DNA of 64,000 bases from Escherichia coli. GTDB taxonomy: Bacteria > Pseudomonadota > Gammaproteobacteria > Enterobacterales > Enterobacteriaceae. Positions 24,001 to 30,000 of the stretch are shown here, in pieces. The stretch is taken from NCBI RefSeq assembly GCF_003019035.1, contig NZ_CP027447.1. The stretch is one strand, 5' to 3'. Every line of letters begins with the position of its first letter. Positions within the stretch are counted from its first letter, which is position 1. A program made the position numbers.

Positions 24001-27000
24001 AACTAATGCAACCAATGGGGATATTACTTCTGATAACCGTGACTGAATATATCCTCTAAACAATGACTCCTCTGCCAGAGATACAAAAAACAAATTAGCC
24101 AATATAAACTCTGGCAACCACTCAGGGAAATGAATTTCTGGATTTAACCCACCCAAAAACACAGCCAAAAATAAGATAAGAGGAACAGAGAGAAAGAGAC
24201 ACCCCCACATCCACAAAGACACTTCTGATTTTATTTCTTTTTCAAACAAAGAGGCTGTACACAGGACTAACAAAAATGGCACTAGCGCCTTATCAAAATT
24301 AAAATACATTGTATATGGTGTGCTTTTAGGTCCGACAGTAACAGACTGTAGCACTACGGGATTGTGAAAACCAGGCCATAAATGGAAAGATAATGCTATG
24401 GCTGATAAAACCATACCAGCCTCATATATATTTTTAACCAAGACATTATATTTCCAGTTAAATTTTAAGATAGTCAAAAGAAATATTGTAGCAATAAAAA
24501 ACAATACCGGCAAGTCAATAATATTATTGACCACTCCTAGGACAACAGACACCATCAATAATGAAAAAGACACTACCTTACGCCAACTGAGAGTGAACAG
24601 TGACAGAGCTAACACAATCCACATAAGCATTCCTTTTATTTAATAACTAAGATTTATTATCAATATTTTTAATCTACATGGCAACATTTAATTTCCTTTT
24701 CACAAAGTGTATACCACAAAAAATAAACACATTAATTATAAAAGCAGAAAACATAACCATCGCAATATGTATTCCTACCGCATATCCATATCTAACCTGA
24801 CACTCAGAGCCATAAGCATCCCTTCAATAATACCTTCCGCTTTATAAAGTCTTTTACCAATCAGTCCATCAGAACATCTGTGCTTACGTGCAAGTGTCAT
24901 GAACGTCATTCTACCTACGTAATAATCTACCAACAAATCGTGCAAATCCTGATTATTCTTGTTTAATCGTGCCATACAGCCACAAATTATCATGGCATCA
25001 TCATCAGAACACTGAGGACGTGATTTCACTTTAGTCGGGATCAATCCTTTAAAACCGGCAGCAATAGATGACCATGTAACATCCTCGTGGTTATTTGCCA
25101 CCCAAGCTCCCCATCGTTCCAGAACCATCTGAATATCACGCGCCATAGTTATTACCTCTGATTTCGTAAATCTTCACATCCAGCCTCCCACCAGGAACGA
25201 GCTGACCGCGCACAATATTGATTTCATCAAACTGCTCGTCGTCTATGAGTAGTCCTGCATGCGTCAGCGCATCCAGTGGTGCTTTCAGGATATTGTCAAG
25301 GTCACGACGGCGCTTATCCGGTGGCTCTGCAATAATCTTTATCGCCAGCCTTCCGGACAGGTTTAATTTCAGTTGCTGCTGGCGAACAATAAGCGCCACA
25401 TCACGGCGATAACGCTCACCGGCTTTTGATACAAAATATGTGCTGCTACGACGACGCCAGTAGGTATTCACCGTCGGAGGGTAAGGCAAAACAAATTCTA
25501 TCCCCATCAGTAACCTCTTTTATCCGAGTACGCCAGTTGCAAAGGCGTGATCAAGAAAACGAAAAATTAAATCAACCTGAGAACCATGCTTTTCTTCGAA
25601 CGCCTGCGGATCTGCATGAAGTTCGTTGTGATGTTCCCGGCACAGCGGCAACGTAAAAATATCGTGGGCCTTTGTTCCCATCCCACCCTGACCGTGACCT
25701 ATCAGGTGATGGGGATCGTCTGCTGGTTGACCACAACACGCACACGGCTGTGTCTTCACCCAGCGCGTATATTTCTCATTTACCCAACGGCGACGTTTAG
25801 GTCGCCTCATGAAAGATTCCGGAGACTCCGGATCAACGGTGATGCATACCACCATCTTTTCCAGTGGTGGGTTCTGTTGCTGGTGGGAGTGAGGCAACGG
25901 CGCAAGATTTTTTGTGCGCTGCTTCAGTATGTTGGTGGCAGTCTGCTCTCCCGGTACGATGTCGCTTTCGCGGTACACCGCGCGGATTTTTTCCGCACGT
26001 AACCCCAGAGAACGACGTAATACTGCCTCCGGAAGCGTGTCCGCCACTTGATTGCAGACCGCCCACCAGGATAATTCAGCCAGCGATAACTCCCTCTCCT
26101 GCGTGCCATTCATTGCATGGCGTATGACGTCAATCATCCATGCTGACAGATTTTGATGAGCAAGTTGCCCGAGTGATTCGGATGTCTGGTCACGCAGCTG
26201 GTTGTCGCAGTGCCAGCACAACACCATCGCGCCGGTACCGTAACGATGTATGACGATTTCACTGTGATGATAGTCACCATGAGGCCACTGGCAGGATTTG
26301 ACATGACGCAACAGCCAGTCAGACAGTGCCCCAGCGCCGCCAGCAGCACGAATCACCCGCTCATCGCTGAAAAATGGCAGTAATGATTTATCCTCCGCCA
26401 GCGGCTGGCGAACGGCAGGGACGACTCCGGATGGCAGGCCGCACATGCTTTTCGATTCCGGCTCCACCAGCACTCGAGGATTGTGAAATACCTGCATGGA
26501 TTCACGACCTGGCTTAAGGACCACCAGCCCGAGTTCCGGTACCAGAACAGGTCGAAGTAATACCCGCACGTTACCTCCAGATGCGTTGCTGGAATGTGCG
26601 GGACGGACGCGGTGGGCGTTCGGAATAAGGGAGTCTGACGTAGATTATCCAGTGACGATAATCGAGGCTGAGGGCTTTCCTAAACTCATACCCACGTCTG
26701 CGGTAGTTCTGTATCAGCCATTCGGCCTGTTCTTCAGTGCAGGGGGCATGCTGATACCAGTCATATTTGAATGTGTGAGAACGCCGCCCTTGCCTGCTGG
26801 CAGGGGCGGTATCAGAATTGTGATGTTTGGTATTGTGCGCCATCGGTTTTCTCTGCTGGCGCAGCAGGTGCCAGTTGTTCAAGCTGGCGTGCGGCAATAT
26901 TGTCTCTGATTTCTGTTGTCGTCAACAGGCAACGTGCTATCATCAAATGGTGTTCTATCCTACTCCGTGAGGTTTACCATGCGTACAACCCAACAATTCA

Positions 27001-30000
27001 GCATTACATTAACTAACGAAATGGCTGACATGGTGCGCGCCCGTGTGGCTTCCGGTGCCTATGCTTCAGAAAGCGAGGTCATTCGTGAAGGGCTTCGCGC
27101 ACTGAATGAGCGCGATAAAGCAATCGAAGCGTGGTTAACGCATTCAGCCGCCCCCTCTCTTGATTCTATCCGCGAAAACCCAAACAACGGACGCTCCATT
27201 TCACAGGTTCGCGCCGCGATTCGATCCGGGAAGTAATCTGCATGACATATGAAGTCATCATTACTCCTGAGGCCGAACAACAAATAATCAACCTGCACAG
27301 GTATATAACGGAGAAAGCAGGGAACGTCATTGCTGACAATTATGCCAATGCGCTTCTTGATTATCTTGATGGGTTTTCTACATTCCCGCATCGGGGCAAT
27401 AAACGCGATGATATTCGCCAGGGGATGCGGGTAACTCATTTCCGCCACAGAACGATTATTGCTTTTGCCGTTGATAGCAGAAAAGTCTTTATTGTCGGTA
27501 TCTATCATGGTGGGCAAAGTTATGAAACCGATTTCTTATAAACTTTTACCCACATCATTCCGGTGTTAGAATAAACCGTCCGCCCCCTCTCTTACTGGCG
27601 GATTCGTAGGCTATATAAATCAAAGATCCCGGCTCATGTTTGTGTCGGGATCTTTTTTCGGCGATTTATCCCCAGCGGCAAATCGAATACACCACCAGCG
27701 CCACCGCCATCGCAATTCTTACCGTGGTGAATGCTTCAGGCCAGGTCATCGCAAAACATCCTCCGCGCTTATCAGTTCGTTCCGCTTCAGGTAGTCCATC
27801 GCCTTCTCCGGTAATTTGCAGTCCGGCTTAGCTTTTTCCAGTTGGCTGGCCAGTCGTTTAACCCACATTGTTAATTCGCCAACCTGATTACTGGATGCTA
27901 GTGGATTGTCGGCTTTACCCAGAATGACAGCACAGCAGGCCTCTTTGAGTACCCAATCAACAGCATCTTTCCATGCTCCTGTTTCGACTGGTGGATTCTC
28001 ACGCTTTACCTGTTCATAAAAGCGCACGGCTTTAACCAGTCCTTCTGATGTCACAGGGACTGGCGGGGTAGTGAATAAGACCTGAATCTCATAGCCCGGC
28101 CTGTCGTTGCACCCCTCTTTTGTCGGTACATATTTCCAGTCACCAACCCACATCTTCTCCTGAAAGTCCGTAACGCCTTTTTTCACGTAGCGATATCGCC
28201 ATGCAACTGGTTTTGCCTGCCCTGCCGTTTCATGCCCTTCCTGATAATTAATCTCGCTCATTCATCGCCCCACTCATCACAATATGCTTCGACCGGTGTT
28301 TTTCCTGCTTCATAATCATCACGCCATGCATCGGCATCAGCAGCACTTCCACCACGTAACTCTGCATAGTCCATTAACAGTTCATGCCATTCTTTAAAAC
28401 TGACGTTGTATTTAGTTGAACCAAAATCAGCCATTTTGTTCTTCCTCTTCGTCTTTTATTTCGTGATATGAGTAATTGCAGTAGTTAAAGAAAATTTCTT
28501 TTGCTTCGTCATGAATTTCATCAGGTGTTGCGTCATCGTCCACTTCGAATACATCCTCAAAATCTCCACCAGCTATTCCAGTTTCAATAATTACTTTGAA
28601 CTTTCGCATTTCACTACTGCCCTTTCGGGTGGCCTCCTGCTGTTCTGAGGGTGCAGAAATCCCTCCGGTAAAGGATTAAGTTTTTAACCGTGCTAAATTT
28701 AATTATTCAGTTCTGGATTTTGTCACCCTGCGTATCCGCGCTTTCGCGTTACGCTCAATCTGAATTAACTTTTCTATATTTTTCCGTCTTTCCTGTTCCT
28801 CCTGGCGCAATAGCCTTACATCATCTGCCAGTCTGGTTTCTCTTTTCGCCACAGAGAGCATCCAGTCAAACGGCTCCACAACTGCACAGCAGATTTTACA
28901 GCGGACCTGACGCTCTTTTTCGTCAACCCGGACAGAAGCGTGATGACAATATGTTCTTTCCGATGGCTCATAAAGAAAATTAACCTGATTACGCGGGTCA
29001 TCCTCTTTTTCCGGAAATAAAACAATATTACTTAACTCATCTTCTGGTTTTATTTCCACGTCACTCTCCTTTGATGCGAATGCCAGCGGCGCGTGGCACA
29101 TTAGCTTCCACGATGCGCACAGTTGGTTTGTACATCTCAATCGCTGCCAGCCAGTCAGCTCCTGTCATGCGCTTTTCTGCATCGCCATTAGTCCACTGAA
29201 CCGGTACACCAATAGCCTTCATCGCAATTTCTATTTCCCCGGCAATGGCGCTTTTTCCGCAACCAGTAAAACCAGATACAACGACAAGAACTTCGCCCTT
29301 GGCCGGTTTTAGTTCCCGCGCTTCCAGCTCTTTAACGCGCTCCTCTAGTTCGTAGACTCTGCATTGTTCTTTATCATCAATCAGATATAACCCAAGACAT
29401 TCGCTTTCTACCCAGACACCGAAATCATGATCGTAACGCTCACATGAAAACTCACCGTCGCTGTCCTTTGTTGGGATGGTGTAGCTATCTAATGGGCCAC
29501 CATACGTCGGCACATTTCCCAATGTCGGATGCTCAATCCACATGAAAAATGCACGTCCGGTTATTGGGCAAATATCTGGTCGCCATTGGTTACTCACTGG
29601 TTGCCTCCTGGAAAATAACTGCATGCCCCAGCTTCTCCGCCAGTGCCAGTTCCGCCTTAGCGCCTGCTGACCGCTGCCAGCCTTTCAGCATGTAAATCGC
29701 ATCCACACAACGAATCATTGCCATGCAAATATCCATGTAGTGTGGCTGTGTCAGCCCGTCCGGAAGTACTGCCGGGTTTAAGACTGTATGCCCTTCCCGT
29801 TTCAGTTCCTCTTCCACCTTGTCGAACACCTCACGGTTGAAATTTTTATACCCGGTCATTGGACCAGCGATATAAACCCTCACCCTCACGCCATCACCTC
29901 CTGAAAATTACCCTGATAAAACGCCAGCACACGCTGCATAACCTCACTCTGACGGCACTCACGGCAAATTATGTTCTGGCTCCTGTCGTAGCGGCGTATT

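Follow-up and report, generated by a model that had tools for sequence, protein, structure and literature searches.

We examined a two-gene toxin–antitoxin (TA) cassette in a 64,000-nt stretch of Escherichia coli DNA (contig NZ_CP027447.1, assembly GCF_003019035.1), hereafter the window, which carries a lambdoid prophage. The cassette lies in the nin-like region of this prophage, between the replication genes and the DUF968-RusA-Q genes, and consists of an antitoxin gene, parD, followed on the same strand by a toxin gene, parE; the positions of both genes, of their putative regulatory sites, and of the surrounding prophage genes are collected in Table 1. A first-pass annotation of this DNA had located both open reading frames (ORFs) on the plus strand amid minus-strand phage genes of a nin-like region; the strand and coordinates stand, and the setting agrees with the neighboring genes and with the comparison to a related Shiga toxin 1d (Stx1d) prophage described below. 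Two details had to be corrected. The antitoxin does begin with MRTTQQFSITL, but it is 85 rather than 86 amino acids long (86 codons including the stop), and the toxin is indeed 99 amino acids long but starts after a gap of 5 nt (27237-27241) rather than 6. A 152-amino acid antisense ORF (27059..27517) arose merely from the listing of ORFs, and we disregarded it.

ParD passed the thresholds of both Pfam PF03693 (ParD_antitoxin; 32.1 bits, gathering cut-off 21) and NCBIfam TIGR02606 ("ParD family antitoxin"; 53.8 bits, cut-off 46.2), and it matched the PHROGs antitoxin family phrog_6494 with an E-value of 1.7e-56. The protein is identical to RefSeq WP_001260977.1, which is likewise named "ParD family antitoxin", and has more than 2657 homologues. 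In a search of the PDB, its N-terminal 50 residues aligned with solved ParD structures (Caulobacter 3kxe_C, 7ycv, 7b22, 6x0a_a, and 8c24_C). We conclude that ParD is a ribbon-helix-helix (RHH) antitoxin of the ParD family with its RHH domain at the N terminus.

The toxin required closer attention. It matched Pfam PF05016 (ParE_toxin) at 40.4 bits (gathering cut-off 23) over residues 5-94 of its 99, and the PHROGs toxin family phrog_5232 with an E-value of 2.4e-43. These family matches, together with those of ParD, uphold the first-pass call of a ParDE-type TA pair, which had been taken to depend on such matches. ParE and RelE have one fold and one Pfam clan, however; the name that the Prokaryotic Genome Annotation Pipeline (PGAP) gives to the identical RefSeq protein, WP_000220601.1, goes no further than "RelE/ParE family toxin", and none of the specific NCBIfam models matched. 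The protein could accordingly be imagined as a RelE-like ribosome-dependent mRNA endonuclease and not a gyrase poison, and we weighed this alternative by profile and structure comparison. A single-sequence search of the PDB returned one chain, weakly (6x0a, E 0.011). A search of 1.84 billion representatives gave 1145 relatives of the toxin at E ≤ 1e-3, and 92 of these made up an alignment (A1) on which both a profile search of the PDB and an AlphaFold2 (AF2) model were based. The profile matched Mesorhizobium 6x0a (4.8e-12), Mycobacterium tuberculosis ParE1 (1.3e-8), PrpT (2.6e-8), and Caulobacter ParE1 (5.5e-8), and also Pseudomonas aeruginosa ParE, E. coli O157 ParE2, and Vibrio cholerae ParE2; its eight best matches in the PDB are all ParE toxins. 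A structure named RelE/StbE (7etr) did appear in the profile search at 1.7e-4, but it is itself ParESO of the Shewanella prophage CP4So (PMC8706911).

The AF2 model pointed in the same direction. It had a mean predicted local distance difference test (pLDDT) score of 90.2 and a beta-alpha-alpha-beta-beta-beta order of elements, and when it was compared with the PDB by Foldseek, all 23 matches at E ≤ 1e-3 were ParE-type toxins, with template modeling (TM) scores of 0.72-0.83 and root-mean-square deviations of 1.4-2.6 Å. The fold check that the first-pass annotation had proposed thus came out in favor of ParE. RelE-type RNases (YoeB, YafQ, HigB, and RelJK) appeared only from rank 26 downward, with TM ≤ 0.64 and E ≥ 3e-3 (E ≥ 5.5e-3 at those ranks), whereas a RelE-type mRNA interferase would be expected to have ribosome-dependent RNases as its nearest relatives. 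The partner of the toxin, in addition, is a ParD-family antitoxin. Because the PDB profile, the model fold, and the Foldseek matches all point to ParE toxins, we place the protein on the ParE branch and not the RelE branch of the RelE/ParE superfamily, and we regard a RelE-like endonuclease as very improbable. In a further AF2 model, of a fused ParD-linker-ParE chain, ParD residues 50-80 had pLDDT values of 93-95 and the linker values below 50; the underlying alignment (A3) was built from pre-fused ParD/ParE rows whose pairing was partly arbitrary, and we take the model as no more than suggestive of a ParD C-terminal half docked on ParE.

Both genes are maintained as proteins. In five E. coli and phage copies, all of them full length, the ratio of nonsynonymous to synonymous substitution rates (dN/dS) was 0.06-0.19 for parE, from 10-19 synonymous differences, and 0.06-0.42 for parD, where synonymous differences were few; parD and parE are both under purifying selection. 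Taken together with the family thresholds, the PHROGs E-values, and the 1145 toxin relatives, these ratios put the pair far beyond chance. Among the E. coli copies (window versus loci L005, L006, and L007), we also observed that dS was much higher in parE (0.17-0.37) than in parD (0.03-0.08). The difference suggests either that a recombination joint lies where parD meets parE or that the parD DNA is additionally constrained.

Adjacent co-oriented small genes, an antitoxin gene upstream, a short intergenic gap, and a promoter-like site give the locus the architecture of a type II TA operon. The promoter-like site, predicted from consensus alone, has 9 of 12 consensus matches plus a TG motif and lies 35 nt upstream of parD. 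Both of its hexamers were invariant in the six copies compared (6/6), including copies with unrelated upstream flanks, and conservation extended from ~26911 to the parD ATG in all copies, those with unrelated DNA further upstream among them. A candidate ParD operator, read by hand, overlaps the −35 element, and its 5-bp arms (TGTTG/CAACA) are kept in all copies compared. Downstream of parE, the RNA of 27540-27670 was predicted to fold at −38.8 kcal/mol (z = −3.78; 0 of 200 shuffles were as stable), with an intrinsic-terminator-like hairpin near its end. A pattern scan found no terminator because the loop of this hairpin exceeds the 8-nt limit of the scan. An A-tract upstream of the hairpin could allow termination in both directions. 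Rfam gave no match in 26400-28300.

Table 1. Features of the parDE cassette and of the surrounding prophage, in window coordinates.
Feature	Position	Strand	Remarks
Mobile cassette (moron): promoter/operator, parD, parE, terminators	26896..27790	+	shared with phage ArgO145 in a different context
Sigma-70-like promoter (predicted)	26916..26943	+	−35 TTGTCG 26916-26921, 16-nt spacer, extended −10 TGcTATCAT 26935-26943
Candidate ParD operator	26913..26928	.	CTGTTG-tcgt-CAACAG; inverted repeat over the −35, hand-read
Shine-Dalgarno GAGG	26969..26972	+	6 nt 5' of the parD ATG; kept in all copies compared
parD	26979..27236	+	ATG 26979, stop 27234-27236; 85 aa
parE	27242..27541	+	ATG 27242, stop 27539-27541; 99 aa
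Intrinsic-terminator-like hairpin	27622..27660	+	GC-rich stem GAUCCCGGC/GUCGGGAUC (hairpin 27622-27655), then U6
Antiterminator Q	24775..25146	-	left of cassette
RusA	25136..25507	-	left of cassette
DUF968	25520..26569	-	left of cassette
Small hypothetical gene	26571..26897	-	left of cassette
171-aa ORF	27746..28261	-	right of cassette
DUF7167	28427..28609	-	right of cassette
stxA	22075..23022	-	protein 100% identical to PGAP-annotated Stx1d subunit, E. coli JNEC-KY180
stxB	21796..22065	-	protein 100% identical to PGAP-annotated Stx1d subunit, E. coli JNEC-KY180
Integrase	37654..38679		adjoins tRNA-Ser(cga)

The cassette also resembles the morons of lambdoid phages, having its own promoter-like site and terminator hairpin, an orientation opposite to the early genes, and a variable presence at a fixed slot in related phages; PHROGs places both protein families in its category "moron". 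The term describes a genetic architecture and not a function. The closest relative of the whole prophage, the ~97% identical Stx1d prophage of E. coli JNEC-KY180 (L008), is without the parDE cassette. Its collinearity with the window breaks off at 26893 and resumes at 28619, and its slot (9166-13039) holds 3.9 kb of other cargo, namely two hypothetical genes, hokD, and a "beta family"/"sce7726 family" pair. Phage ArgO145 and some Stx2a phages share the block 26896-27790 at 97.4% identity (megablast of 26700-27800, query 197-1091). In ArgO145 the block is flanked by an anti-repressor gene and by HNH/ea22 genes, close to the integrase, and here too its orientation is opposite to that of the neighboring genes; the flanks upstream of the cassette differ between copies while the core is conserved. 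Because the cassette is at a different position in ArgO145 and L008 has other cargo at the slot, we conclude that parDE is a self-contained moron of ~0.9 kb that recombines into different slots.

The stretch of the window that L008 replaces with its own cargo, 26894-28618, holds three small ORFs besides parDE and marks a cargo-swap hot spot of the nin region. A second prophage of JNEC-KY180 (L001) was considered as the whole-prophage counterpart and rejected: 1.1 kb around the pair is 100% identical, but the match to the window is limited to 25180-29087, and L008 is the better counterpart overall. L001 is a defective prophage that encodes an "enterotoxin A family protein" (15562-16353) between Q and the holin; it also has relBE, ydaS/ydaT-like genes, and dicB, making several TA-like modules in one prophage.

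The full pair is present in 327 of 5426 complete E. coli genomes (~6%), always on the chromosome, and the nin-type left junction is likewise found in 327 complete E. coli genomes. PLSDB held no genuine plasmid copy of the pair; the one near-identical match was to a 1.4 Mb entry deposited as a plasmid, all others being distant matches to the ParD N-terminal part. We also noticed that PA2-type Stx2a phages (E. coli WG5::PA2, L004 3001-3978) carry an orphan ParD, parE having been lost. This parD has 87% nucleotide identity and a dN/dS of 0.18 relative to the window ParD, and homology ends 14 nt into parE; the same arrangement occurs in 37 complete genomes and in numerous records of Stx2a phages. 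In place of parE, these phages have a 90-amino acid lipoprotein-like ORF (…TSGC lipobox) and a HigA-like helix-turn-helix gene. We considered the 90-amino acid ORF as a replacement toxin and rejected it, as it is lipoprotein-like and matches no toxin family. The orphan ParD itself could be an anti-addiction gene.

Sharp junctions at sites that vary from phage to phage, presence in so small a share of complete E. coli genomes, and the retention of parD alone in PA2-type phages would also suit a pair that is a passenger and benefits neither phage nor host. It would then be an attenuated TA, or else a cassette of purely selfish nature that persists only through the cost of its loss and through recombination among lambdoid phages that carries it along. 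The purifying selection on both genes argues against this, since it means that the proteins are maintained, which fits selfish addiction and not decay. We therefore consider a mere passenger unlikely, and note that such a role overlaps with, and does not exclude, the intact addiction-type operon that we favor.

To the right of the cassette are small phage ORFs (phrog_660, DUF7167), followed at a greater distance by replication and immunity genes. The prophage carrying parDE encodes Stx1d, its stxA and stxB products being identical to annotated Stx1d subunits, and the cassette is ~4 kb from stx. Between Q and stx there is a minus-strand gene for a CPBP/Rce1-like intramembrane protease (PF02517; 23806-24630), which is also present in the related Stx1d prophage. 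Elsewhere in the window, 39813-50588 is an insertion of ~10.7 kb beside tRNA-Asn that the JNEC-KY180 locus lacks; it contains an integrase gene (39948..41312), an integrase-like gene (42628..43584, minus strand), and a gene for a 1259-amino acid Rhs-repeat protein (45643..49422).

We then compared the pair with characterized systems. It is like the canonical ParD-ParE systems (RK2; Caulobacter 3kxe; Mesorhizobium 5ceg/6x0a; M. tuberculosis 8c24; V. cholerae 7r5a) in having the antitoxin first, an RHH ParD, and a toxin of ~100 amino acids with the ParE fold, and these systems supplied its best profile and structure matches. It is unlike them in that toxin identity is only 12-24%, the window cassette is phage-borne and not found on plasmids (PLSDB), and the clade is known from sequence. 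Prophage-borne ParE-type toxins have three documented precedents (PMC8706911 for ParESO-CopASO; PMC7264888 and PMC13048266 for PfiT/PfiA; PMC8630535 for PaaR2-PaaA2-ParE2). PaaR2-PaaA2-ParE2, from CP-933P of E. coli O157:H7 (5cw7/5czf), likewise has a ParE-type toxin in a lambdoid prophage (TM 0.77-0.79). That system has three components, however, a small antitoxin without a DNA-binding domain being accompanied by a separate regulator, PaaR2, whereas the window cassette is limited to two genes and its antitoxin includes an RHH domain; the pair does not belong to the three-component group. In ParESO-CopASO of CP4So in Shewanella oneidensis (7etr), a ParE-like toxin encoded by a prophage is paired with an antitoxin of the RHH/CopG type, and the system maintains the excised prophage (PMC8706911). 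Among functional precedents for prophage stabilization it is the best, although its relation to our pair is weaker (7etr E 1.7e-4, partial; Foldseek TM 0.59) and host and phage type differ. PfiT/PfiA of Pf4 in P. aeruginosa (9w3a) is again a prophage toxin of the ParE superfamily with its cognate antitoxin (TM 0.79-0.82) and modulates phage production (PMC7264888, PMC13048266), with a distinctive C terminus in PfiT (PMC13048266). It differs in that Pf4 is a filamentous single-stranded DNA phage and identity is 16-17%.

Our favored explanation, which we consider probable, is that the pair is an intact canonical two-gene type II parDE operon forming an autonomous, oppositely oriented moron in the nin-like region of an Stx1d-converting lambdoid prophage. 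The mechanism is modeled on the ParDE systems of RK2, Caulobacter, M. tuberculosis, V. cholerae, and E. coli O157 (ParE2), and it is only by analogy with these that we infer gyrase poisoning, prophage addiction, or phage defense for this pair. A ParD dimer would bind an operator at the promoter, for which CTGTTG-N4-CAACAG over the −35 is a candidate, and would autorepress the operon, and the C-terminal half of ParD would wrap round ParE and neutralize the toxin. ParD would be protease-labile, such that ParE would be freed once the cassette was lost or its expression blocked; free ParE would then poison or trap DNA gyrase, so that breaks in the DNA, SOS induction, and arrest of growth would follow. 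This would amount to addiction, in which cells losing the prophage are penalized and the cassette and its host prophage persist.

The first-pass annotation had suggested that the pair may stabilize the prophage or act in phage defense; the former role has precedents in other prophage ParE systems. In the latter case, the main role of the cassette would be anti-phage defense by abortive infection. A superinfecting phage would stop host transcription or trigger ParD degradation, ParE would be freed, and the lysogen would arrest before the invader replicates, which would protect sister lysogens together with the resident Stx prophage. Many type II TA systems defend against phages, the cassette occupies a variable cargo slot where the closest relative has hokD and the "beta family"/"sce7726 family" pair, and its own promoter-like site and terminator hairpin make it a module of the lysogen-expressed type. 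Against such a role, neither protein had a family match in PADLOC-DB v2 at E ≤ 0.1, our literature searches found no report of ParDE as a defense system, and no phage-sensing component is suggested by the sequence. We regard defense as a minor possibility.

Several points weigh against our preferred reading of an intact parDE operon acting as an addiction module. The low identity given above holds for any structurally or biochemically characterized ParE, and gyrase action has not been demonstrated for every ParE-like toxin. The repeat search reported no operator-like inverted repeat; the hand-read repeat of 5-6 bp is too short for that search and statistically weak. Since an integrated prophage is inherited along with the chromosome, classical post-segregational killing would not act until excision or deletion has taken place, and its benefit may be slight. 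Finally, literature searches found no paper on this particular pair, experimental studies included.

At the level of annotation, the pair was already known, as identical RefSeq proteins, as the antitoxin and toxin of ArgO145, and through matches to PHROGs families. What we add to the databases is small, and the finding is an ordinary one; its modest value lies in a firm placement of the toxin on the ParE branch and in the definition of a mobile unit of ~0.9 kb in a cargo slot of Shiga toxin phages. Two further roles can be imagined, each of which we think quite unlikely. In the first, ParE would do more than enforce addiction: if it poisons gyrase, a drop in ParD would give an SOS signal and thereby feed back on induction of the Stx1d prophage and on Shiga toxin release, the drop possibly being caused by stress proteolysis or by antisense/convergent early-right transcription through the cassette. 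In the second, the orphan ParD would make the system a module of phage–phage competition; if this is true, the orphan ParD, which is under purifying selection in the O157 PA2-type Stx2a phages, would be an anti-addiction or immunity gene against ParE-carrying rival prophages. Because gyrase damage is the signal that induces Stx production, a likely gyrase poison encoded within an SOS-inducible Stx prophage is of note.

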